In this document: positions 20,176-32,807 of the stretch, in pieces
How the letters are laid out: the number at the start of each line of letters is the position of its first letter
How positions within the stretch are numbered: the stretch's first letter is position 1
Source: a virus
DNA length: 64,000 nucleotides
Virus record (IMG/VR): IMGVR_UViG_3300049489_000444
Coordinates: 23,108 to 87,107 of that record
Strand: one strand, 5' to 3'
The notes under the pieces: generated by a model
Database searches by the model: none
The model's input: the letters and a program-made list of their open reading frames with translations, nothing else
Told to the model about the DNA's origin: nothing
Translations under genes and position numbers: made by a program

Positions 20176-20517
20176 TTACTGCCTAGACAGGCGTTCCCAC
20201 AGAGTCTTGCAGTAACCTGTGATGTTGAGGCAGCGATTTAGCTCACGGATGTCAAATTTCTTGCTGGCGTAGATCGTGAGACAGTCGGCTGATGCTTGGT
20301 CTCCAACCCGGATATACTTCGATCTCATGTCTGCGGCGATCTTACGGATCCGATCAAAGTCCCCGTGCTTATGAAGCGTGCCGGACTTACGGTCAAACAG
20401 GATGGCCGGGCATCTCGTTGAGATCAACATATGGCCGCGATGGTCGCGCAAGATAAACGAGCCGTCCTTGGCGAACTCGTACTGGTTGCTGTATACCTCG
20501 TCGTCATCCCTTTCCAT
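20176..20517 (-). CDS. Hypothetical protein
   Basis: GGAGG RBS before MERDDDEV, overlapping the end of the polymerase gene. Confidence 0.6.
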   Translation of the reverse strand: MERDDDEVYSNQYEFAKDGSFILRDHRGHMLISTRCPAILFDRKSGTLHKHGDFDRIRKIAADMRSKYIRVGDQASADCLTIYASKKFDIRELNRCLNITGYCKTLWERLSRQ

Positions 20518-23470
20518 CTGTCCCTCCAGCGGCAAGCCACTCGCTCATCTTCTTCCAACCATCGTCAGTCCACTCGAGCTTCCTCATGTTGCCCCAAGCG
20601 ATTCCGAATTCGAAATCTACTTCGAGTGGGCAGATAAAATCTACACCCCAGATATCACGGATTTTATCCATCATACAGACCGTGAAACACTTTTCGGCAA
20701 CCGTCGCGGCTTCACGGATATCCTCGATAGGCACCTCAGTCACGCATGAGTCATGGACGATATTTACTATCTTCCAATCCTTCTTGTTCTGTTCAATGTA
20801 ATCAAGCCACAGCCCAGCCCCAATGATACAGGCATCACTGGCCACGCCCTGGATTGGTGCGTTACGAGCAAGCCGGCTTGCGCTGGCGTGTGTCCACTCT
20901 AGGTTTGGGAATGTCTCGGCATCAATCAGGTACTCTGGTAGGCGGCGACGACGCCCCAGTGGGCTCTCGACATACGTTTGTTGTCTGGCGATCTGCTCGA
21001 TCTTACGCAGCCAGCGGTTAGCCGCCGTGAACTGGTCAGCGAAATCCCTGCAGAGGCGTTTAACGTACTCGAGATCGTCTTCCTTCTTGATACGTTGGGC
21101 GATAAGTTTCGGGCCGCCGCCATAGATGAGCGCGAACACAATCGCCTTCGTCTGTTGACGTAGGTCTTTTGCGTCCTGTTTGAGCTTCTTTAGCAGGTTG
21201 TCGATATCCTTCTTCTCCTGATCGTTTTTGGCGTTCGCAAGTTTAGCTTTAGCGGACTTGGTCTCGGCATCAATCTTGGCGAATTGATCTGGAAACATCA
21301 TGCGGGCAGTCTGAAGATGGATGTCGCCCTCAGTGTCAGCCTTAGCTTTGTTCTCTGGGGTTGGGTTCTTGCGGTAAGCATCACGGGCGAATTTTCCATT
21401 ACGCAGGATTGTAGCGAGTCGCCCGTCTCCTGAAATGAGTGCCCACCACCGAACCTCGGCGGCCGCATAGTCTAGCTGCATGAATACCCGGTGAACTTTT
21501 TTGCCCTTGCGCCAAGCCCCATAGGGCTGCTCAGCGCAATACATTGATTTGACGGACGCCTTCGTTGGGGTATCCGCTCGTGGAACATTCTGGATGTTTG
21601 GCGCAGTACAGTTCGGCCGACCAGTTACGGTGTCAGTGAACCCAAAGTTGGCTCTGACTCGGCAATCCGTCGCGTGATCGATCTCTTTAGAGTTCGGATC
21701 AACGAGTTTGATGATCTTACGTGTGTATCCCGTGCTGAGCTTCTTGAAGCCGCTATACTCCTGCATCAATGCGACTTCTTTGATAGGGTCTGGCACAGGA
21801 GTTTGCTGCGTCCCGGCGTATTGCTCGTAGAACTCCTTGTTGACGGAGTGTTTGGCGGTCTTCTTTTTCTTTTTACCCACGACAGGCTTCAGGCCCAGAA
21901 CTTCGAAGAACAACGCCTGTTGATGTTCTTGTGTATCGAGGTTGAACACCCACGGCGTCCCGTATAGGGGCTTCTGTCCTCCGCTGATGCGCTTGGCCAG
22001 GGCGTCATTAGCTGCCCTGACTGTCGGGAGTGCGCGTAGCTCGTTCTTGATCTCTCCCATACGATCAATCAATGGGCTGTTCTTTGACGCCAGTACCCGC
22101 AGATGTTCTAGGTCTGTGTATATGCCGTTACGCTTCAAGACACTGAAAACGCGAAACCCAGAGTTGAACACGTGCATGACCAGCTTGAGTGCCTGATCCC
22201 AGTACCCCTGAGAGCGTGCCACCATGCGCAGGTACCTGAACAGCAGCGACGTGCTGATGACATCCTCAGCCGCGTACGGGATGAGTTGTTCCGGTTTGGC
22301 TTTATACAGGTTACCAGCGGAGCGCTCATCCAATATCTGGGTGTCGTAGGCGTCACGACCGAGGTACTCACTGGCGAGCATCTTCAGGCTGAGACCCTGC
22401 TGGATGATCTTTTGGGTCTTGACCCTATTTTCGTCCAACACGTACGTGAGGCCCATGACGTCGATCATCGGTGCGTTGGTGAATGTCTTTCCGTCGAGGA
22501 TAAACTCCATAACCTGTTGTTGTTCGAATACACCAAAGTGAGTCAACCAATAAGAGAACCCAGGACGCTCTGTGAACAGCTTTCTAAGTAGCTCCTTGAT
22601 GCGCACAAGATCGTCGTCCAAAAATGGACCATATTGGTAGGCATATGGTACTACCCATACCTCTTTGAATGGGTCGACACAGAACTGCAGCATCACGAGC
22701 CCGTTACCGTAGCGGGCATTGGTGTTACGCGTCTCGACGTCGAATGAGCATGTCTGTTTTGCTGTTGTCTCATACAGCAAATGATTGACCATCTTTTCGA
22801 TCTTCTCAACGGTGTCACAGTAGTGGATGGCTGGGTCTGCACGCCACCGCACAGGGTGGTGCATAGACTTTTCACCGTGCTGGGCGAGGTCGAATGCTTT
22901 GGCGATCCCTTCGATGTAGTGAGGGATCAGGGCTGTCGAATTCATAACCTCGTGCGTCTTTATGATCGCTAGTGCTAGATAGTTCTTGCCATCTATCTCG
23001 ACATCAAAAACTTTATTGTACCGCAATCTGTTGTGGTCGTGCGGACTAACCAGAGGCCGCAAGGCAGCGAGCCCGTGACAGACCAGAACTCTTGGAGTCG
23101 TCTCCTCGAGGTCTCTACACAGGTGCTTCCTGCAGTGACTTAGCTCAACCGCGTCCGGCCTACGCGGGGAACCGTCCCGGTCCATTGGTCTGCATCGCAG
23201 CAGGCTGGTGAAGCCGTACCCGTCAGATGGGCATCCGATCTCACATATGATGTCCTTCAGGAAGGATGCGCTGCGCGTTGCGAACGCGTGGCCCTTCTTG
23301 ATGTCCTCTTCAAAAGGAATATCACTGATGAACAGGAGATCGACGTGCTTTGACGGAGACGGTCCGGCCTCTGTCTTTTTCTGGATGACTATCGAGGCCA
23401 CGTTGTGGCAGTTGTCGATGGACGGGCAGTATCTCTGTGTGCATTTCTGTTCTAAAATCGAGATCGGCAT
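20504..23470 (-). CDS. polA: Family A DNA polymerase with N-terminal uracil-DNA-glycosylase-like domain and 3'-5' exonuclease
   Basis: Pol motifs TVTGR, PNIQNVP, DYAAAEVR, RQQTKAIVFALIYG, NAPIQG, VHDS. Exo motifs FDVET and YAAEDV. N-terminus has LRCRP...ELSHCR.HL (family-4 UDG-like). Confidence 0.93.
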   Translation of the reverse strand: MPISILEQKCTQRYCPSIDNCHNVASIVIQKKTEAGPSPSKHVDLLFISDIPFEEDIKKGHAFATRSASFLKDIICEIGCPSDGYGFTSLLRCRPMDRDGSPRRPDAVELSHCRKHLCRDLEETTPRVLVCHGLAALRPLVSPHDHNRLRYNKVFDVEIDGKNYLALAIIKTHEVMNSTALIPHYIEGIAKAFDLAQHGEKSMHHPVRWRADPAIHYCDTVEKIEKMVNHLLYETTAKQTCSFDVETRNTNARYGNGLVMLQFCVDPFKEVWVVPYAYQYGPFLDDDLVRIKELLRKLFTERPGFSYWLTHFGVFEQQQVMEFILDGKTFTNAPMIDVMGLTYVLDENRVKTQKIIQQGLSLKMLASEYLGRDAYDTQILDERSAGNLYKAKPEQLIPYAAEDVISTSLLFRYLRMVARSQGYWDQALKLVMHVFNSGFRVFSVLKRNGIYTDLEHLRVLASKNSPLIDRMGEIKNELRALPTVRAANDALAKRISGGQKPLYGTPWVFNLDTQEHQQALFFEVLGLKPVVGKKKKKTAKHSVNKEFYEQYAGTQQTPVPDPIKEVALMQEYSGFKKLSTGYTRKIIKLVDPNSKEIDHATDCRVRANFGFTDTVTGRPNCTAPNIQNVPRADTPTKASVKSMYCAEQPYGAWRKGKKVHRVFMQLDYAAAEVRWWALISGDGRLATILRNGKFARDAYRKNPTPENKAKADTEGDIHLQTARMMFPDQFAKIDAETKSAKAKLANAKNDQEKKDIDNLLKKLKQDAKDLRQQTKAIVFALIYGGGPKLIAQRIKKEDDLEYVKRLCRDFADQFTAANRWLRKIEQIARQQTYVESPLGRRRRLPEYLIDAETFPNLEWTHASASRLARNAPIQGVASDACIIGAGLWLDYIEQNKKDWKIVNIVHDSCVTEVPIEDIREAATVAEKCFTVCMMDKIRDIWGVDFICPLEVDFEFGIAWGNMRKLEWTDDGWKKMSEWLAAGGTDGKG

Positions 23471-23794: not shown

Positions 23795-24032
23795 GGACTC
23801 GTTTGATCATGAAGATCGTATCGGTCCGTCCAACGATCTCATAGAATTGCTGGTCAATTCTGTGGTAGAGGCGAGCCCCGACAACAAGGTCTGCGGTCTG
23901 AGGTCGTCTCAGTTCTTGCTCGATCTCTACGCCTTCTCTGGTGAGAGAACCAGACGCAGATGTCGTGACCTGTAGATCGATCGGGATACCGGAGGCTGTC
24001 TCGATCGATGGGATCGACTTTGCTCGTATCAT
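23706..24032 (-). CDS. Hypothetical protein
   Basis: 108 aa, ATGA-coupled to the upstream ORF. Confidence 0.45.
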   Translation of the reverse strand: MIRAKSIPSIETASGIPIDLQVTTSASGSLTREGVEIEQELRRPQTADLVVGARLYHRIDQQFYEIVGRTDTIFMIKRVRDETQHGATLRQLKACMYVYTERSAEGVG

Positions 24033-24298
24033 TGGGCGCCGGCTGGCCGGTTCAGGAATGTCGCGTAGTGCGTCGCGACTGGGCTCTGGATTGCCGCAAT
24101 GAATGGCCGGCAGTTGAAGCAGCGCTGACCTCGTGCCTCCCTTGGGCAGTGCATCTCTTCATGTCGGACCGCGATATAGGCACAAATCTCAACGAATTCG
24201 CGTTGCCGGACATCATCAATGGCCCAGACGGCAGGCCTGCCGATAGCGCTGATCATGTGGTGACTTGGGTTTGATTCCGTAAGCATGTTAGACCTCAC
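24029..24298 (-). CDS. Hypothetical Cys-containing protein
   Basis: 89 aa, HCPR...RCFNC. Confidence 0.45.
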   Translation of the reverse strand: MRSNMLTESNPSHHMISAIGRPAVWAIDDVRQREFVEICAYIAVRHEEMHCPREARGQRCFNCRPFIAAIQSPVATHYATFLNRPAGAQ

Positions 24299-24315
24299 CG
24301 GCTATTTACGCCACA

Positions 24316-24651
24316 TCACTCTGGGGTTTCATGTAGCCTGAGACAGATAGCCTCGATATCGAACCACTGTTCAGGAACATACATACCGTCCTGAAGGTTG
24401 CGGGTAAGATGCTTGATTTGCTTGAAATCCCAGTAGAATCGACCACTCCCGATCAAGCATTGACAGTACCGCTCTGTGCGTGGGATATGACCGCGCTGGC
24501 AGCGCGTTACCCAGTCGTTAAACCAAACGGTATTGTAGGTCCGTCTCGGTCCGAAACGCGGACGCAGCGCCTCGATGGTGGACTGCGCGGGAGTATGAGG
24601 GTCGTCTGGGTTTGCCGCCAGGACCGTTACAACCAGTAGCGCTGTAATCAT
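24316..24651 (-). CDS. Secreted small Cys-containing protein
   Basis: Signal-peptide-like MITALLVVTVLAA, C...YCQC...C pattern, AAGGAGG RBS. Confidence 0.65.
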   Translation of the reverse strand: MITALLVVTVLAANPDDPHTPAQSTIEALRPRFGPRRTYNTVWFNDWVTRCQRGHIPRTERYCQCLIGSGRFYWDFKQIKHLTRNLQDGMYVPEQWFDIEAICLRLHETPE

Positions 24652-24881
24652 GGTTCGACCTCCTTTGGTGGTTTGGCGATGACGACGTAGACGTCCATGC
24701 CGTCGTTTTCATCCCATTCACTCCAACGGACATCCAGCCCGGCCCGTTCCAGGCATTGGAGGAATTCGGACCATTCACGGTCGTCAACCGATAGGCTCTG
24801 ACGGATTTCGTCCGCCGGACTTGGAGTTGTCGGGTTGAGTGATGCCTGCCATCTTCCAGTGTAACGATCGAGGATAATCAT
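24648..24881 (-). CDS. Small acidic hypothetical protein
   Basis: 77 aa directly downstream of the vWA gene, ATGA-coupled to the next gene. Confidence 0.6.
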   Translation of the reverse strand: MIILDRYTGRWQASLNPTTPSPADEIRQSLSVDDREWSEFLQCLERAGLDVRWSEWDENDGMDVYVVIAKPPKEVEP

Positions 24882-24899
24882 CTCTTCTCTTCTTTCGGT

Positions 24900-26243
24900 T
24901 TATGCAGCGAACAACTTGGTGGCGAGATCGTCGTCGATCCCGTAGGTCTGTTCGATGGTCTCGACGGTGTCGCACCACGGGCTGAGGCACTCCGCATTGA
25001 CCCCGATGGCCATCCCAAAGGAGTTGACGCCAAGTGCCTTGGCCTGCTCACGCAGCGCGGCCGTGCGGTTCTGGTTGGATCCACCGTCGGTGATCATGAC
25101 GATGTCGGCCTTGGCCAATTGACCGGGGTTCTGCTGGATGATCTGCAGGGCACGCTCGTACGCGACGTCGATGTCAGTCCCGCCGTGGCACTCCACGAAC
25201 AGCGCGGATGCGTCCATCTTCTCGCCCTTCTTGGTGATGGCCTCGTGCATGATGCGGGTGTCGAATGAGACCACGGCGAACACGCGCCCATCACGAACGG
25301 CCAGATCACCCAACGCCAAAGCCACCGCGGTGGCCCAATCATTCGGGTCGCCCTTCATGCTGCCTGATTTGTCCAGGCACACCACCATCGGCCCTTTGCC
25401 TTTGGTCTCGGTCCCGCGCATCTCGTACTGCAGGACCGAGCGCTCCATCATTTGCCTGTGCAGGTCCAGCCGTGAGAGCGGGTGCATCAGCTTGGCCAGT
25501 TCCGTGGGCAGGAAGCGGGAGATGTCGTCACCGACGGTGATGTCAGCGATCTCATCAGCCCCGTGACGGACCTTCTGCTTCTGCTTGGTCAGGGCCATCT
25601 TGCGGAAGCGGCCAATCAACTGCACCAGCCGCTGCATGCGGGGCTTGGTCTTCAGGGCGTTGGCGATCTGCCGAGTGCGTTCCCCGGCGGCGGCCGCGTG
25701 TTCGCCGGGCTGGTCGCCGGGCTGCCAGCCGAACGCGAATTGATCCAGGGCAGCCTCAGCCTCAATGAGGCCCTCCACGGTCTCCTGTGCACACTGGACG
25801 GCCTTCCGGGTGAGCCGGCGCAGCCCGTCCTCGAACTTCTTGACCTCACCGGGATCCATGGACTTGGGCGGCGTCAGACCACCCTGCTGGGCGCGCTCTT
25901 CGTCCCGGAGGGCTGGACCCAGGTCGCCCATCAACTGCTCGACCGCCATACCGGCCATGGCGGCCCGTTGGTGCTCGGGGAGCGACCGGATTTGGTCCGC
26001 CATGCGTTGGAACGCCGGGAGGGCGTTGCAGGCGTCGTGGACGCCCTTGGCCCAACGGGTCAGCTTGGGGTCGGCCTTTTCGGCCGGCAGCGCCTCAACC
26101 TCGTCACCATTGGCGAGCCGATCAAAAAGCTCGTCCTCGAACTGGACCCGCTTGTGATCGAGCGAGTCGACCTGATCCAGACCGCGGGCAGCGCGGTGTT
26201 GGTAGATCGTCCAACGCGGCACATCGAGGGTGAGTCGCTTCAT
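24900..26243 (-). CDS. viaA: vWA-domain protein (ViaA-like partner of the MoxR ATPase)
   Basis: MIDAS motif CLDKSGSM, GGTD, ADIVMITDG; GDDISRFLPTEL upstream; GGAGG RBS before the ATG at 26243. Confidence 0.85.
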   Translation of the reverse strand: MKRLTLDVPRWTIYQHRAARGLDQVDSLDHKRVQFEDELFDRLANGDEVEALPAEKADPKLTRWAKGVHDACNALPAFQRMADQIRSLPEHQRAAMAGMAVEQLMGDLGPALRDEERAQQGGLTPPKSMDPGEVKKFEDGLRRLTRKAVQCAQETVEGLIEAEAALDQFAFGWQPGDQPGEHAAAAGERTRQIANALKTKPRMQRLVQLIGRFRKMALTKQKQKVRHGADEIADITVGDDISRFLPTELAKLMHPLSRLDLHRQMMERSVLQYEMRGTETKGKGPMVVCLDKSGSMKGDPNDWATAVALALGDLAVRDGRVFAVVSFDTRIMHEAITKKGEKMDASALFVECHGGTDIDVAYERALQIIQQNPGQLAKADIVMITDGGSNQNRTAALREQAKALGVNSFGMAIGVNAECLSPWCDTVETIEQTYGIDDDLATKLFAA

Positions 26244-26266
26244 GGGTGTTGCCTCCAGTGGGTCAA

Positions 26267-26295
26267 CGTATATCAGGATGATATACACATGTCAA
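26267..26295 (-). promoter_or_regulatory. Sigma70-type promoter P1 with palindromic operator
   Basis: TTGACA-17 nt-TATACG. The perfect inverted repeat GTATATCA-GGA-TGATATAC at 26268-26286 covers the spacer and -10. Confidence 0.8.
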
Positions 26296-26379
26296 GGGTA
26301 ATCTTCTTGGCCTGCCGACCTCCTAGGACGCCTCAGGATCGACGTTCCGTGCGTGACCATGCGCACCCCGGTTTGGGTC

Positions 26380-27525
26380 TCAGCGACCCAGCGGACGAGC
26401 GCCGAGGCCCATTCCGGCAGAGACTTGGCGGTTGAACTCAGCCCGGACCTCGCTGATCTCTTTGGCGCCATCCAGGGCCACGGCCTTGGTCCGCTTGCCG
26501 GCCTTCTGGGCCAGATCTTCAATGGACACCCTCATACGGTCCAGTTCGACCATGGCGGAGGCGGCCGCAGCAACGAACGCCTTGCGGTCCCCGCCCTTCA
26601 GGGCCTCAGTCTTCCGCGTCAGTTCGCGGGCCGCGTCGACGACTTCAGACACCTGTGACGAGACAGGGTCCGCCACCTTGCCGACGACGCGCGCCACCTT
26701 GGTGCGCTCCTTGGGCTCGCGCCACAGGGCGTCCACCAGACACAGCATGTCCTCGGCGGTGACCTCGGTCTCACCGGCCAGATAGGCGCTGGCCTTGGCC
26801 AGACGCAGGCACTTCTTGACGCGGCGGTCCGAGATGATGATGCCCTCGACGGCCAGTGCCTCCCTGATCTCGATCAGGGCGTCCACGGCGGCGTCCGTGA
26901 CCTTGACGGCCATGGCGGCCGCCTGAGAGGCGCGCAGGTCACCCATGGTCAGGCGGACCGTGCTGGTGGGCTCATCCGCCAGCAGCATCGTGCGGAGGTT
27001 GGACGTGCGAGACAGATAGGCCACGTCGAACCGCACCATGAAGCGGTCCCAAAGGGCTTCCAGTTCCTTGCCCTCGGGCATCTCGTTGGAGGCGCCGAAG
27101 AGGGACACCAGCGGCATCTTGGTGGGCGCCCCGTCATTGTGGAACAGGCGCTCGTTCATGGCCGTGAGCAACGAGTTGAGGATCGCGCTGTTTGACTTGA
27201 ACACCTCGTCGACAAACGCGAACTCAGCCTCCGGGAGCTTGCCGGTGGTCACGCGGGCGAAGCGGTCCTGCTCCAAGGCCTTCAGGCTGACCGGCCCGAA
27301 AAGCTCCTCGGGCGTGGAGAACCGCGTCATGAGGCGCTCGAAGTACACGCCGGAGAAGGCGGCCGCAATGGCCCGCACGAGGGCCGACTTGGCCGTTCCC
27401 GGAGGCCCCAGCATCAGGACATGCTCGCCGGCCAAGATGGCCGCCAGAGCGCCCTCGATGACATCCCGGCGCTCCGGGAACTGCGCGTTCAACTCGGTCT
27501 TGAGGGCGGCGAATGGCTGGGTCAT
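26380..27525 (-). CDS. ravA: MoxR-family AAA+ ATPase (RavA-like)
   Basis: GPPGTAKS Walker A, TRFSTPEELFGP, FVDEVFKSNSAILNSLL, GASNE, LWDRF, ISDRR; GGAG RBS before the ATG at 27525. Confidence 0.9.
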   Translation of the reverse strand: MTQPFAALKTELNAQFPERRDVIEGALAAILAGEHVLMLGPPGTAKSALVRAIAAAFSGVYFERLMTRFSTPEELFGPVSLKALEQDRFARVTTGKLPEAEFAFVDEVFKSNSAILNSLLTAMNERLFHNDGAPTKMPLVSLFGASNEMPEGKELEALWDRFMVRFDVAYLSRTSNLRTMLLADEPTSTVRLTMGDLRASQAAAMAVKVTDAAVDALIEIREALAVEGIIISDRRVKKCLRLAKASAYLAGETEVTAEDMLCLVDALWREPKERTKVARVVGKVADPVSSQVSEVVDAARELTRKTEALKGGDRKAFVAAAASAMVELDRMRVSIEDLAQKAGKRTKAVALDGAKEISEVRAEFNRQVSAGMGLGARPLGR

Positions 27526-27565
27526 GTGGTGTATCTCCGGTGGACGGGATGTCCAAGTAACGTGG

Positions 27566-27594
27566 AGCATACATGGAGTGTACCGATCTGTCAA
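27566..27594 (-). promoter_or_regulatory. Sigma70-type promoter P2
   Basis: TTGACA-17 nt-TATGCT upstream of the MoxR gene; no clear operator. Confidence 0.7.
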
Positions 27595-27602
27595 GCGATA
27601 TC

Positions 27603-27800
27603 TTAGTGCGCGAGATCCGGCTCATCTTTGATGGCGGTCTGGACCGCCTCCCCGCCTGATGCCTCGTTGATGGCCTCGAGGATCTCGGTATCCGAGAGCC
27701 CTTTCTCTCGCAAAAACGCCATCTTCTGCTGGAGCGTACCGGGACCGTCGGCCGTGTCTCGGAGGAACTTCACGGCTCGGGCGAGGCTAATGGTTCTCAT
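27603..27800 (-). CDS. 65-aa protein resembling the Pex14 N-terminal domain
   Basis: AVKFL-x10-QQKMAFLREKGLSDTEI matches the Pex14_N signature; GGAG RBS. Confidence 0.65.
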   Translation of the reverse strand: MRTISLARAVKFLRDTADGPGTLQQKMAFLREKGLSDTEILEAINEASGGEAVQTAIKDEPDLAH

Positions 27801-27866
27801 TGTAGTATCTCCATTGGTCTGCATGACGGGCGCGCAACCACAGGCCGCGCCCGGACATCGCCTCCG

Positions 27867-28811
27867 TCAGGCACGCTTTTGCGCCAGCAGTGTCTCGACG
27901 GACTGCACCATCTGGTTCAGTTGGGCGTCAAGGTCTTCGACGGTGCAGCCGAGGATCGAGCGGTACAGCGTGGCGCGCCCACGCAGGTCCTCGAACGTCG
28001 CCAGACGGCGGTCCAGGGTGCTGGGGCGGACCCCGTCAGGGTCCTCGCAGAACCCCGCGATTTCGCCACGCAGGGCGGTCAGTTCGGCCTCAATGGAGCC
28101 CGCGGCCGCCACCTGCAGGGCACGCTCGGCCTGCTCGGACCGACTCACCGGCAGGACGAAAACCTCAGACGAGCCGATTCCGGCGATTGCACCCTGCAGG
28201 GCGCGGACCTTGTCCGCGTTCGTGCGCGGCACCCAGTAGATGCCGCCGGTCTCGCGCAGCGTCACGCCGTTGGCGGCCTTCAAGCATTTGACGATCGTCG
28301 TCATGACGTCACGACTCGGGTGGGTCGTGAGGTACCGCTGGTATTCCCTCACGATCAGCCCGGCCGTCTCGTTGACCGGGTTGTCAGTCGAGATTACCGG
28401 GTTGGCCTTGTCGGCCTTGTCCAGCATGACCAGCGCCTTCTGCGTTGAGAAGTAGTTCCCGGACGCGTCGTGGCCCTCCTCGACGACCGCGTAGATCAGC
28501 GCGTTGGCGCTGTCGACGGTGGGGCGCACCAGAGTCCCCTGGCGGTTGGCGCCAAGGTTGGTTGATGCCGCCCGCACCGCGAGCCGCAGCGCCTTGTCGG
28601 GCGTCTGCGCCTCCGGGAGCATCTTGGGGTCCAGCCCCGCGCTGACCCAACGCTGCTCCAGCACGGAGCGCTGGACGTCGGCGTCAGCCAACGCCCAATA
28701 GACGATATCGCCAAGGTGCTCGCCATTTGAGGTGGCGAGCACGTTGCGCAGGTCCGTAACGGACCGGACCTGCGTGGAGGAGGAGATGGCGGCGGCGGCG
28801 GTGTCGGTCAT
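27867..28811 (-). CDS. DUF6744/DUF3150-like protein associated with AAA-vWA modules
   Basis: LGDIVYWAL...W..AGL...LP, LRETGGIYWVP, RATLYRSILG. Family recalled from memory, not searched. Confidence 0.6.
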   Translation of the reverse strand: MTDTAAAAISSSTQVRSVTDLRNVLATSNGEHLGDIVYWALADADVQRSVLEQRWVSAGLDPKMLPEAQTPDKALRLAVRAASTNLGANRQGTLVRPTVDSANALIYAVVEEGHDASGNYFSTQKALVMLDKADKANPVISTDNPVNETAGLIVREYQRYLTTHPSRDVMTTIVKCLKAANGVTLRETGGIYWVPRTNADKVRALQGAIAGIGSSEVFVLPVSRSEQAERALQVAAAGSIEAELTALRGEIAGFCEDPDGVRPSTLDRRLATFEDLRGRATLYRSILGCTVEDLDAQLNQMVQSVETLLAQKRA

Positions 28812-28855
28812 TGGGTTTTCTCCGTGGGCTCAGTGGCCCGGTCCTTCGTTGTGGT

Positions 28856-28887
28856 AGGCATATATCATCGTGATATATGCCTGTCAA
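28856..28887 (-). promoter_or_regulatory. Sigma70-type promoter P3 with palindromic operator
   Basis: TTGACA-17 nt-TATATG. Perfect inverted repeat with 12-bp arms, AGGCATATATCA-TCG-TGATATATGCCT, at 28856-28882. Confidence 0.8.
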
Positions 28888-28913
28888 GTGAAATCGGCTG
28901 ACAGATCAGCCGA
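28886..28913 (-). terminator. Possible intrinsic terminator
   Basis: 8-bp hairpin TCGGCTGA-4nt-TCAGCCGA at the end of the upstream ORF, followed only by a weak TTTCACTT tail. Confidence 0.35.
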
Positions 28914-29403
28914 CAGAGATCACGGGGATCACCGGCTCGCCCTCAGCATCCTGGGATGCCACCTCATGGGGGCGGAACGCGTCACCCAGGACACCGCCAC
29001 TGACGACGGTGACATCCCGGAGGCGGACGGCACCCTTGACCGGGGTCTTGGGGAGGGTCTTGAGTTCCGCGTTGAAGCGCGCGGTGGCCTCTTTGACCCC
29101 GTTGACTTCCATGAGGGCCTCTTCGGCCTTCTCGTCCATGGCGGCGGCGTCACGCATGGCGCCGAGCAGGATCTCAATGGCGAGATCCCGCTGAAGCCCG
29201 CTGCGCTGGATGAACAGGCCGATGGCGGCCTTGGTCAGGCCGCGCGAGGTCGGGGTCTTCTCTGTATCGACGCCGCGGCAGCACACGCCGGACACCCGGA
29301 CCACGAAATCAAACGGGTGGTTTCCGGGGGCCACGTCGGATTCCGGCAGCTTGCTGCCGACCTTAGAGAGAACCAGCGACTCGATGGCTGAGAGGTTGAT
29401 CAT
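28906..29403 (-). CDS. Hypothetical protein, first gene of the leftward arm
   Basis: 165 aa, AAGGAG RBS, GC-rich codon usage like its neighbours. Confidence 0.75.
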   Translation of the reverse strand: MINLSAIESLVLSKVGSKLPESDVAPGNHPFDFVVRVSGVCCRGVDTEKTPTSRGLTKAAIGLFIQRSGLQRDLAIEILLGAMRDAAAMDEKAEEALMEVNGVKEATARFNAELKTLPKTPVKGAVRLRDVTVVSGGVLGDAFRPHEVASQDAEGEPVIPVISVG

Positions 29404-29465
29404 TGGGTGCTCCTTGGCGGGGTGCGGCCCGCGTCCGTTTTTCATTGATGCAGTTCGTAAGGTGG

Positions 29466-29494
29466 ATAATACATGACCTACGCCCGGCTGTCAA
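29466..29494 (-). promoter_or_regulatory. Sigma70-type promoter P4
   Basis: TTGACA-17 nt-TATTAT, close to consensus. Confidence 0.8.
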
Positions 29495-29551
29495 CTGTTT
29501 TCTGCCTAGACAGATCAACGCAGATCTATTGAGGTTTTTCGTTGAAACCGC

Positions 29552-29580
29552 TTGCGTCATGTATATCCTGATGCTATACA
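29552..29580 (+). promoter_or_regulatory. Divergent sigma70-type promoter P5 with operator variant
   Basis: TTGCGT-17 nt-TATACA. GTATATCC-TGA-TGCTATAC at 29561-29579 matches the P1 operator at 7/8 positions in each arm. Confidence 0.7.
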
Positions 29581-29619
29581 CGGGTAAGTGGTTGTTTTTC
29601 CCGGACAACAGAGGCCAAC

Positions 29620-30765
29620 ATGTCGCGCACACATCATACTGTGGAACTGACCATCCCCTATAGGACCAAACCGGACCTGCGGACCCTACGGGGACCGATC
29701 AACAAGGCGGTCAAATCGAGTGTAGACCGAGACCGCTGGCACTACGACGGTCGGCGCATCGAAATCTCCGACCTCGACGGAAGTCTAAAACTGCGCCTCC
29801 GTTTCGAGCCGACCGCGCGGGCATCGGTCGCCGACCGCGCCAAGCTCGCCCGGAGTGTCCGCCGGGCGGTCGCATCCATCGCCATAGACCAGCCTGGATC
29901 GACGGAACCTCAACCGACGGAACCTCAACCGACGGAACCTCAACCGACGGAACCTCAACCGACGGAATTGATGCCATCACCAGAGCCAGAGCCAGAGCCA
30001 GCGCCAGATATGTCACCGCCGCCGATAAACGTCGAGCGTGGCACCAATTTCGATCATATCTATGACCGTAGCGCTCAGGTCTCAATCCTCCTGTCGGCTA
30101 TCCGTGCTGCCGTCGAGTCCGATTTCCAAGTGCGATTCCATACGATTCTATTTGGCCCGCCAGGATGCGGCAAAACGGAAATTTTGCGGTCAGCTATCGC
30201 GATGCTCGGTCCATCACACGTCCTGCTCCTAGACGGACCTAGCACCACCAAAGCAGGTGCCGAGCAACTCCTGATGGGTGTGAAACGCATTCAACCGTTT
30301 GTCCTCATCGAGGAAATCGAGAAGATGCACCCAGCGCATATGCAATGGTTACTGGGGCTACTGGACGAGCGCGGCGAGGTTCGACGCACCAACGCACGGG
30401 ACGGACACGTGCAGCGCGACGCCAGGATGCTGTGCATCGCGACGGTGAACGACATGCTGAGGTTTCGTGCTCTGATGTTCGGAGCGCTAAGCAGTCGTTT
30501 CTCACATGAGATTTATTGTCCGCGCCCGGACACTGATGTCCTTAGCAAGATCGCACACCGCGAAGTCGCCCGTATCGGCGGCAACCCGTTTTGGGTTAAC
30601 GCCGCGGTCAATTATTGCGTGCACGTCGAGGGCACGTACGACCCACGCCGCGTTGTCAGCGTCTGTCTCAGCGGTCGTGATGCGCTGCTGGATGGGACCT
30701 ACCAGAGAGCCCTCCTGCATAACCGCATGCTGCAGCAACAAGCAGCCAACAACGAGAAGAAGTGA
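29620..30765 (+). CDS. AAA+ ATPase (RuvB/RarA-like core) with N-terminal domain and Pro/Glu linker
   Basis: FDHIY, HTILFGPPGCGKT Walker A, VLIEEIEK Walker B, IATVN sensor, LSSRF Arg finger. Confidence 0.8.
   Translation: MSRTHHTVELTIPYRTKPDLRTLRGPINKAVKSSVDRDRWHYDGRRIEISDLDGSLKLRLRFEPTARASVADRAKLARSVRRAVASIAIDQPGSTEPQPTEPQPTEPQPTEPQPTELMPSPEPEPEPAPDMSPPPINVERGTNFDHIYDRSAQVSILLSAIRAAVESDFQVRFHTILFGPPGCGKTEILRSAIAMLGPSHVLLLDGPSTTKAGAEQLLMGVKRIQPFVLIEEIEKMHPAHMQWLLGLLDERGEVRRTNARDGHVQRDARMLCIATVNDMLRFRALMFGALSSRFSHEIYCPRPDTDVLSKIAHREVARIGGNPFWVNAAVNYCVHVEGTYDPRRVVSVCLSGRDALLDGTYQRALLHNRMLQQQAANNEKK
29900..29967 (+). repeat. 15-bp coding tandem repeat (TEPQP)
   Basis: CGACGGAACCTCAAC in 4 perfect copies plus a partial one, followed by CCAGAG x3. 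Confidence 0.95.
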
Positions 30766-31066: not shown

Positions 31067-31770
31067 AACCGGCCGATATCCTAGATCAAGCAGCCAACGC
31101 GCTCGAGGAACAGGCCCATGTGGCAAACTTCGGCTACGTCGAGGCGTCCAGCCTATCCCGATTGCTGAACATGGTCGGAACGCCGGAGAACAAGACTGAC
31201 CCGACGACCAACAAGAAGATGATCGATTTCAATGTTGGCCGGGCTTTCGCGATCCTGACGGCGTGGAAGGACGTTCTTGACGACAAGCCTCTGAGCGAGA
31301 AGCAGAACTGGGCTCGTAATCGGTTGCTCCTTAATGAGTTGAACGCCAAGAAGATGGGCGCCTACAAGCTCATCGGTTTCTTCCAGAACCCGCCAGAGGG
31401 CATGACCTACGACGAGGCGCGGGACCAAGGCAAGCTGCTGCCGGCATCCCGCGAAGAATCGTTCTTCGTGACCAAGCCGAAGGATATGGAGTTTGATGAG
31501 TTTGAAAACATCATTGGCGGTCTGGCTAACAAGTACGACCAATGGGCCTACCTGATCAGCAACGGCAAGGAGGTCTTCGAGGTCAGCAAGGCGGCCAGGA
31601 AATCGCTCGGTAACCGCTTGGTTATGCCGAAGATCCAACAGGCATACTCACGGATGCGCGGTTATGGAGACAAACCGTTCGTGTTCGCTGGTGTTGTGAC
31701 ACCTGACTCTATCGGGCAGATGCGGTATTTCCAGCATATCGGCCTGAATTGGATCCCGAGGATCAAATGA
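31063..31770 (+). CDS. SAM-lyase (T3 SAMase)/DUF3293-like protein, paralog 1
   Basis: Motifs in order: FAILTAWK, QNWARNRLL, LIGFFQ, REESFFV, KYDQWAYL. Confidence 0.55.
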   Translation: MKPADILDQAANALEEQAHVANFGYVEASSLSRLLNMVGTPENKTDPTTNKKMIDFNVGRAFAILTAWKDVLDDKPLSEKQNWARNRLLLNELNAKKMGAYKLIGFFQNPPEGMTYDEARDQGKLLPASREESFFVTKPKDMEFDEFENIIGGLANKYDQWAYLISNGKEVFEVSKAARKSLGNRLVMPKIQQAYSRMRGYGDKPFVFAGVVTPDSIGQMRYFQHIGLNWIPRIK

Positions 31771-32807
31771 GCAGACTCTACAGGTCAGCCCAAGCGCTGC
31801 TGAATCTCGTCGCGGGGGCCATGAAGTTCCGCGATTTCCGCTCACACGGAGGTACATCGAAGATGTGGATCGACCCGAAGAACAGGCCGATCCCTCTTGA
31901 TGGTATGCACTACGAATGGCTGCGTGAGAATGCACCGTTCGTCAGGAAAGCCTACAACCTCCCAGACATGCCGGACTGGGGTTACGACGACGAGGGTAAG
32001 GCCCGCCTGTGGGCTCTCAGCAATGGATTCACAAGAGTCAACTTCAAAAACAATTGGGTGACATTCGAGACCAACGAACGCTTCTGGACCAAGAAACGCC
32101 AGGACGTCATTTCCATGCTTGTCGCCGAGAACTCTGATGACATCGATAATATCGTCGTCAACGTCCTCAACGACTCAGGAAAGTTGATCAAGGACGGCCG
32201 GGCCGACGTCAGCGGCCTAGATGAGGCGGTCGCCAAAGTCGAATCGATTCCGGTTATCCCCGCGAAACAAACAAGATTGATCGCCGAGGTTCTCAGGAGG
32301 GTCCGTGTTGAGGCGTCGAGCCTGACTCGCATCCTGCGCCTCATCGGTAAGCCAGACCAAGACGGTATCGAGGTCCTACGTCCGTTCGGGATTGTCACGG
32401 CGTTCCAGACAGGCGTTTCTTTGGAGGTGAACAACCAGCGCCTAAACCAGATGAGCGAGAAGCTCGGCCGGTCAGGCGTTAAGACGTATCGCCTGCAGGG
32501 CAACTGGTTAGAGCAGGGACTATCGCCCGATGAGGCCAAGAAACCAGTCAAGGTCCGAGAAGACGCGTTGTTCTGTGTAGTCCAATCAGATGACGATATC
32601 GACTTTGAGGCGTTCTCGCAGGCCATCATCCGTCAGGCGGACCGATTCAATCAGGCGGCTGTCATCCTGAGTGATGGAGCGAACATTTGGCTGCGCTTCA
32701 AGGACGGCCATACAAAGGATTTCGGAGACACCGCGGACGTCGCTACACTCCAACAGGCCTATCAGCAGATGCGTGCCCAGCAAGAACACACGTTCACGTT
32801 CGAGTGA
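31767..32807 (+). CDS. Two-domain protein with C-terminal SAM-lyase-like domain, paralog 2
   Basis: FGIVTAFQ, EVNNQRLNQM, LQGNWLE, REDALF, RFNQAAVIL; clearly paralogous to 31063..31770. Confidence 0.55.
   Translation: MSRLYRSAQALLNLVAGAMKFRDFRSHGGTSKMWIDPKNRPIPLDGMHYEWLRENAPFVRKAYNLPDMPDWGYDDEGKARLWALSNGFTRVNFKNNWVTFETNERFWTKKRQDVISMLVAENSDDIDNIVVNVLNDSGKLIKDGRADVSGLDEAVAKVESIPVIPAKQTRLIAEVLRRVRVEASSLTRILRLIGKPDQDGIEVLRPFGIVTAFQTGVSLEVNNQRLNQMSEKLGRSGVKTYRLQGNWLEQGLSPDEAKKPVKVREDALFCVVQSDDDIDFEAFSQAIIRQADRFNQAAVILSDGANIWLRFKDGHTKDFGDTADVATLQQAYQQMRAQQEHTFTFE

Follow-up and report, generated by a model that had tools for sequence, protein, structure and literature searches.

The open reading frame at window positions 27603-27800 (minus strand) encodes a protein of 65 amino acids whose first ~47 residues are, judging from the sequence, homologous to the three-helix N-terminal domain of the peroxin PEX14 (Pex14_N). 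PEX14-N is the docking site for peroxisomal import receptors and is a drug target in trypanosomes. The best explanation of our data, and one that we consider reasonably probable, is that this is a real small phage protein, a Pex14_N homologue with a fourth helix that would act as a portable docking adaptor. From the homology and the conserved residues seen in the sequences we infer that the protein binds a peptide. The window denotes throughout the whole stretch of DNA that was analysed, 64,000 nucleotides corresponding to bases 23108-87107 of an IMG/VR virus record of 87,107 bases.

CheckV estimates this record to be 26% complete, which at 87,107 bases suggests a large phage, and its gene content, which includes a family A DNA polymerase (PolA), GyrB-like and GyrA/ParC-like subunits of a type II topoisomerase, and baseplate J, fits a tailed phage. 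The polymerase (20504-23470, minus strand) is 988 residues long and possesses an N-terminal domain of the uracil-DNA-glycosylase superfamily (E 3.4e-13) as well as a 3'-5' exonuclease domain. The peptide quoted in the original prediction is encoded exactly at 27603-27800 on the minus strand, and the ribosome-binding site claimed for it can be read directly in the sequence as a Shine-Dalgarno-like GGAG at 27809..27812 (minus strand; GGAGATACTACAATG), 8 nt before the ATG at 27800. An alternative upstream ATG at 27824 would give 73 residues but lacks a Shine-Dalgarno-like motif, so that among the two starts only 27800 has one. A nearly identical motif (GGAGATAC) precedes the ATG of the MoxR gene at 27522. 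The 65-residue protein is small, acidic (pI 4.9) and cytoplasmic, and its ORF is a real phage gene; the ribosome-binding site and the conservation at the protein level rule out the view that it is not a gene. When the 87-kb virus record was searched in its entirety in all six frames, the domain turned up just once, at 27603-27800.

The similarity to Pex14_N far exceeds what chance would give and is found at several levels. The protein matches the Pfam profile PF04695 with E 2.4e-9 and 37.1 bits, above the gathering cut-off of 23.2, over profile positions 2-46 of 46, and Pex14_N is the sole Pfam family matched at E <= 1. The profile search that had been proposed as a check hence confirms the predicted stand-alone, phage-encoded three-helix domain of Pex14_N type, and the opposite outcome, no Pex14_N match or a better one to a generic UBA/HTH-like bundle, was not what we found. 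The database carries a precomputed PF04695 label for the protein; the match itself was therefore not hidden, and automated annotation may already list such matches. The nearest clusters in the ESM Atlas are eukaryotic Pex14_N (score 0.82), which we treat as a lead only, and neither PHROGs nor PADLOC gave a match to the protein. When PDB sequences were searched with phmmer, the domains recovered were human PEX14-N (4bxu_A and 2w84_A; E 1.1e-3), rat PEX14-N (3ff5_A; 2.6e-3) and the trypanosome domains (~0.03), and the identity to solved PEX14-N domains is 33-41% across the whole domain. A gapless alignment to human PEX14-N had been anticipated; AVKFL, AFL..KGL and EI..A are indeed kept, but the alignment, which covers residues 6-49 of the query, contains one single-residue gap close to its end.

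In the same phmmer alignment, F12, F29 and K33 of the phage protein fall on the VKF-L Phe, the AF-L Phe and the KKK-G Lys (the last before G-L) of human PEX14-N. We take these counterparts to be human Phe35, Phe52 and Lys56, which line the groove for di-aromatic peptides of the WxxxF/Y or FxxxF type. According to a preprint (bioRxiv 10.1101/2025.08.01.668090), binding of WxxxF depends crucially on Phe35 and Phe52.

The AF2 model of the 65-residue protein has helices at residues 6-17, 23-32, 37-48 and 51-59, with a mean pLDDT of 79.7 when no alignment was used and 75.5 with 17 sequences, helix 4 being the least confident segment (pLDDT 51-68). The first 14 rows listed by Foldseek against the PDB (ranks 1-16) are all PEX14-N (probability 0.94-0.99, TM 0.57-0.77 and 27-41% identity), and their E-values are at least 0.4 because the domain is so small. 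VIA-align, which is independent of Foldseek, also placed PEX14-N in the top four positions among 48,161 representative chains (Z 5.2, 5.2, 5.1 and 4.8), and chain 3ff5_B superimposes with an rmsd of 1.6 Å over 42 residues at 40% identity. The modelled three-helix bundle thus fits PEX14-N, as the proposed superposition was expected to show, with Z 5.2; the RecX three-helix repeats come next at Z 4.5-4.7, which counts as tied, being within 1 unit of the 5.2 of PEX14-N. Structure alone is not decisive, and it is sequence and structure together that decide for Pex14_N. No match was found among the BFVD viral structures at E <= 0.001.

The likeness to PEX14 (PF04695; PDB 2w84, 3ff5, 4bxu and 5aon) accordingly includes the full-length profile, the three-helix bundle and the VKF-L and AF-L..KGL..EI..A motifs. 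Unlike eukaryotic PEX14, however, the phage protein is a stand-alone domain of 65 residues that has neither a membrane segment nor a coiled coil. A full-length PEX14 orthologue was rejected, since the protein ends at residue 65 and belongs to a tailed phage of a prokaryote.

Our survey of relatives shows that the phage protein is a member of a small family. A word-based homologue search returned the protein itself and nothing else, and tblastn against GenBank phages and PLSDB plasmids gave nothing at E <= 0.1. An exhaustive comparison of 1.84 billion representative sequences by HMMER, on the other hand, yielded 34 matches at E <= 1e-3. They comprise the window's own protein, 16 small relatives, one fused protein (P0034), 12 proteins with Pex14_N repeats, three others whose repeats are not of Pex14_N type (P0024, which is GcrA-like, P0025 and P0033) and P0031. 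Among the proteins recovered, P0008 comes from a contig of 10.3 kb and P0012 from one of 14.7 kb. The 16 small relatives are 54-114 residues long, each forms a singleton cluster from metagenome assemblies, and protein-level conservation across these clusters amounts to 40-60% identity; to the query they are 40-54% identical in a MAFFT alignment (A1). Fourteen of the 17 small proteins in this alignment, the window's included, match Pex14_N at E <= 0.01, the best at 1.3e-13. The fused protein (769 residues, from a metagenome) is Lys/Glu-rich, with zinc ribbons and recurring ESKLKE linkers, and has its Pex14_N-like domain at ~535-575; it is presumably akin to the polyvalent proteins that phages and plasmids encode.

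At the DNA level, an alignment scan of IMG/VR matched 151 stretches, one of which was confirmed, with the domain located inside a ~308-residue ORF of a complete 110-kb virus (L002). A degenerate DNA pattern, which gave one match when checked on the window, picked out 47 genome and 54 metagenome stretches; it requires G, [DE]I, A, N and GG with constant distances between them, and members without these are therefore missed. An HMM built from A1 confirmed, at E <= 1e-19, two genome stretches (titled Verrucomicrobia MAGs) and nine metagenome stretches, while two further loci (L059 and L062; E about 1e-3, partial model) were left out of the count. The search for prokaryotic and viral homologues that had been suggested has thus yielded 16 small proteins, one internal copy and 12 loci. 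Among 401 genomes of the Verrucomicrobia, the phylum of the source genome G001, a match was present in that genome only. Members of the family are rare, patchily distributed and flanked by different genes from one locus to the next; a distribution of this kind is what mobile genes would be expected to show.

Beyond the Pfam domain, which takes up residues ~5-47 of the window's protein, the family has in common a loop and a helix (E-A-L-N-x-A-S/T-G-G-E-x-V) that canonical PEX14 is without, and the fourth helix after the N-x-A-S/T-G-G-E loop marks a distinct prokaryotic/viral subfamily. K33, G34, N45 and G50 are each conserved in 16 of the 17 sequences, position 29 holds Phe in 14 and an aromatic residue in 16, and position 12 holds Phe in 9. 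Because the first phenylalanine of the PEX14-N groove is kept in just 9 of the 17 members, the di-aromatic groove may not be family-wide. Moreover, conservation is highest at A43, followed by the loop residues N45 and G50, and helix 3, the loop and helix 4 together form the most conserved region of the family; as this arrangement is absent from canonical PEX14-N, the key surface may differ from that of PEX14.

The prominence of this region also accords with another reading, namely that the protein is a small HTH-like nucleic-acid-binding regulator in which helix 3, the GG loop and helix 4 are the functional part and the likeness to Pex14_N reflects a shared scaffold. We consider this unlikely. 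Residues 29-63 (window 27603-27716) match BurrH TALE-like repeats with a summed E of 1.8e-9 over 17 repeats, residues 29-59 match P0024, which is GcrA/HTH-like by Pfam, and RecX, Rpa2 winged-helix and GntR chains appear in the structural comparison at Z 3.9-4.7. However, no single BurrH repeat reaches significance (the best scores 5.7 bits, with an independent E of about 280), the summed E-values being low because near-identical repeats add up, and no HTH family in Pfam is matched at E <= 1. The acidic character of the window protein and a pI below 7 in 9 of the 17 members also speak against binding of nucleic acids, and the loop exceeds the classical HTH turn in length. RecX three-helix repeats and GcrA/TALE-like helix-loop-helix units have a similar small helical arrangement but no significant single-domain sequence match. 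The weak likeness of residues 29-63 to BurrH and P0024 may be chance multiplied by repeats, or may reflect a shared helix-GG-helix motif.

The docking adaptor that we favour is encoded within a run of closely spaced, co-oriented genes on the minus strand, in which the small gene is the third of five. The first is ORF179 (28906..29445, 179 residues), for which there is no Pfam, PHROG or PADLOC match. Next upstream of the small gene is a member of the DUF6744 family (27867..28811, 314 residues; PF20529, E 5e-20), and downstream follow a MoxR-type AAA+ ATPase (26380..27522, 380 residues; PF20030 bpMoxR, E 4.4e-56, AAA_5, AAA_lid_8 and phrog_19600, E 1.6e-81) and its CoxE-like vWA partner (24900..26246, 448 residues; VWA_2, E 1.4e-9, and VWA_CoxE, E 1.6e-7). 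The small gene is separated from DUF6744 by 66 nt and from MoxR by 80 nt. A candidate sigma-70-like promoter (TTGACA-17-TATTAT, 11/12) lies upstream of the five genes at 29466..29494 on the minus strand, as a consensus match and not functional evidence, and the small gene would probably be co-transcribed with the other four. The GC content is 0.60-0.64 at window 24000-30000, compared with 0.52-0.58 in most of the window and ~0.54 around the block, and the block from ORF179 to vWA may be a horizontally acquired island.

Two further genes on the plus strand lie beyond this run. Divergent from the operon, 29620-30765 encodes a second AAA+ ATPase (AAA_5, E 4e-8), the N-terminal third of which has PTEPQ repeated four to five times and then PEPEPEP. 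A 352-residue ORF at 31749-32807 has a C-terminal part that scores 27.8 bits against S-adenosylmethionine lyase (cut-off 28, E 2.8e-6), and by this similarity may be an anti-restriction SAM lyase.

The gene order raises the question of whether the small protein is a dedicated accessory subunit of a DUF6744-MoxR-vWA machine that recruits the machine's substrate, a reading to which we give a shade less credence than to the nucleic-acid-binding regulator. The position of its gene, which is flanked by DUF6744 and MoxR and shares their strand, the short gaps, the similar ribosome-binding sites and the raised GC across the whole block (0.60-0.64) would be consistent with such a role. However, MoxR, vWA and DUF6744 were found in none of the 12 related loci (phmmer, E <= 1e-3), many of which are short (1.5-13 kb, several 1.5-4 kb), and no family member was found in the three GenBank phage MoxR loci (L104-L106) at E <= 10. 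Conserved co-occurrence with MoxR and vWA, by which we would recognise an accessory component, is thus not observed, and the original prediction, as a dedicated adaptor for the adjacent MoxR/vWA machine, is not supported; the link with MoxR is peculiar to this one phage and not conserved.

The comparison with other phages points in the same direction. The order DUF6744-MoxR-vWA is common to the window and Moorella phage MTATph1 (26% identity for DUF6744, CDS0119; 43.6% for MoxR and 35% for vWA), but there the slot between DUF6744 and MoxR is occupied by unrelated ORFs of 58, 30 and 91 residues. In Aphanizomenon phage CL131 an LPD29-domain protein directly precedes MoxR, and the slot is without a small ORF. 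Phage MoxR-vWA modules (MTATph1 CDS0114-0119, Bacillus phage 0305phi8-36 gp63-gp66 and CL131 gp146-gp148) differ from the window in having no Pex14_N-like gene in the loci examined, and the small ORFs in the slot vary from one phage to the next. The DUF6744, bpMoxR and vWA genes of MTATph1 (record 114188-116922) are annotated there just as hypothetical protein or ATPase. A tblastn search of phages with DUF6744 found nothing, and single-protein locus searches of IMG/VR with MoxR and with DUF6744 revealed no relatives. Complex prediction for the 65-residue protein with the full vWA neighbour scored 0.07 against a mark of 0.32, which is neither for nor against binding. A survey of MoxR-vWA systems (Kaur et al. 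2020; PMC7159879) contains no mention of Pex14, and the literature searched contains nothing on DUF6744.

Other neighbours accompany the family elsewhere. For instance, five metagenome loci (L054, L077, L100, L097 and L055) have a common upstream fusion of ~570 residues composed of HNH_4 and Peptidase_S24, and in two of them (L054 and L077) a HIT-domain protein of ~130 residues was confirmed between this fusion and the small Pex14_N-like gene. The HIT copy of L054 matches the ThsC-like HIT of PADLOC (E 1e-11). The arrangement of HNH_4-S24, HIT and small protein, which is located at L054:201-2658, has the appearance of a so far undescribed module of conflict systems or mobile elements. In two Verrucomicrobia loci (L020:1955-3337 and L029:4404-6117), the family member follows an HNH_2 protein, with HipA, FtsK/HerA-like and ResIII-DUF3427-PLD genes nearby, and the surroundings are defence-island-like. 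The differing neighbours across loci indicate that the family travels with different conflict or mobile modules.

The 12 repeat proteins recovered with the small family are eukaryote-like and carry 2 to 13 tandem Pex14_N repeats. One of them, from Hondaea fermentalgiana (GBG28837.1, 2200 residues), bears the NCBI name PEX14. Such protist multi-repeat proteins are the best matches outside the family (E 1e-21 to 1e-18), with 7-12 repeats that are each 33-41% identical to the phage protein. They differ from the phage family in being large, in having tandem domains, in lacking the fourth-helix signature and in their position across a branch of the domain tree. In this quick maximum-likelihood tree of 94 domain copies, one branch separates 28 small, viral or prokaryotic copies from 66 eukaryotic repeat copies, and the split has an SH-aLRT of only 68% with the family-specific columns included. 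The tree left out P0024, P0025, P0033, P0035-37, the near-duplicates P0038, P0040 and P0042 and domain hits of fewer than 30 model positions, and was made without canonical PEX14 from most eukaryotes. A recent capture from a eukaryote was rejected in view of the identity of at most 41% and the placement of the family on its own, weakly supported side of the tree. That we are dealing with a convergent short helical protein having no common descent with Pex14_N is highly improbable, because the small domain (just ~46 residues), the Foldseek E-values of at least 0.4 that follow from its size and the 68% SH-aLRT of the split are set against a profile E of 2.4e-9, reaching 1.3e-13 in relatives, 33-41% identity to solved PEX14-N over the whole domain, and the motif positions kept in the PEX14-N alignment.

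We tentatively suggest, and with less assurance than for the docking adaptor itself, that Pex14_N may not be restricted to eukaryotes: the docking domain of peroxisomes and a stand-alone sister family, carried by phages and by mobile or defence islands of bacteria, would descend from one ancestor. In that case the phage protein would take hold of an amphipathic helix in a host or phage protein with the groove that PEX14-N uses. The family may have a bearing on how the peroxin domain arose. The literature searched treats the origin of PEX14-N as eukaryotic and holds no description of a non-eukaryotic Pex14_N. PEX14 is classed as 'euk (a.o)' by Gabaldon et al. 2006 (PMC1472686), a label whose definition in that paper allows a monophyletic prokaryotic branch; the premise that the domain is regarded as eukaryotic is therefore roughly right, with room left for such a branch. 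Neither the small-protein family nor its fourth helix and gene contexts seem to have been described.

If the 65-residue protein works as PEX14-N does, it would be a passive docking module whose PEX14-like groove (F12, F29 and K33) holds on to a short amphipathic helix, probably an aromatic one, in a partner protein. It could thereby serve as a portable adaptor, or as a decoy, in conflicts between phage and host or in those that involve mobile elements. The hand-over of a client to the MoxR-vWA remodelling machine is the weakest step in this scheme, and we regard it as doubtful. The 65 window ORFs contain 12 WxxxF/Y motifs against 14.7 expected, which is no enrichment, and none of them is in the operon.

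A stand-alone relative from phages and bacteria would provide a minimal, easily expressed model of the PEX14-N fold, the practical value of which hinges on identification of the partner. The small family might also serve as an outgroup when the origin of the domain is traced, and it is a new candidate for an adaptor or decoy in the conflict between phages and their hosts. If the proposed common ancestry is true, the principle by which PEX5 docks on PEX14 would have a prokaryotic forerunner in this family, or else the family would go back to an ancient loan of it.
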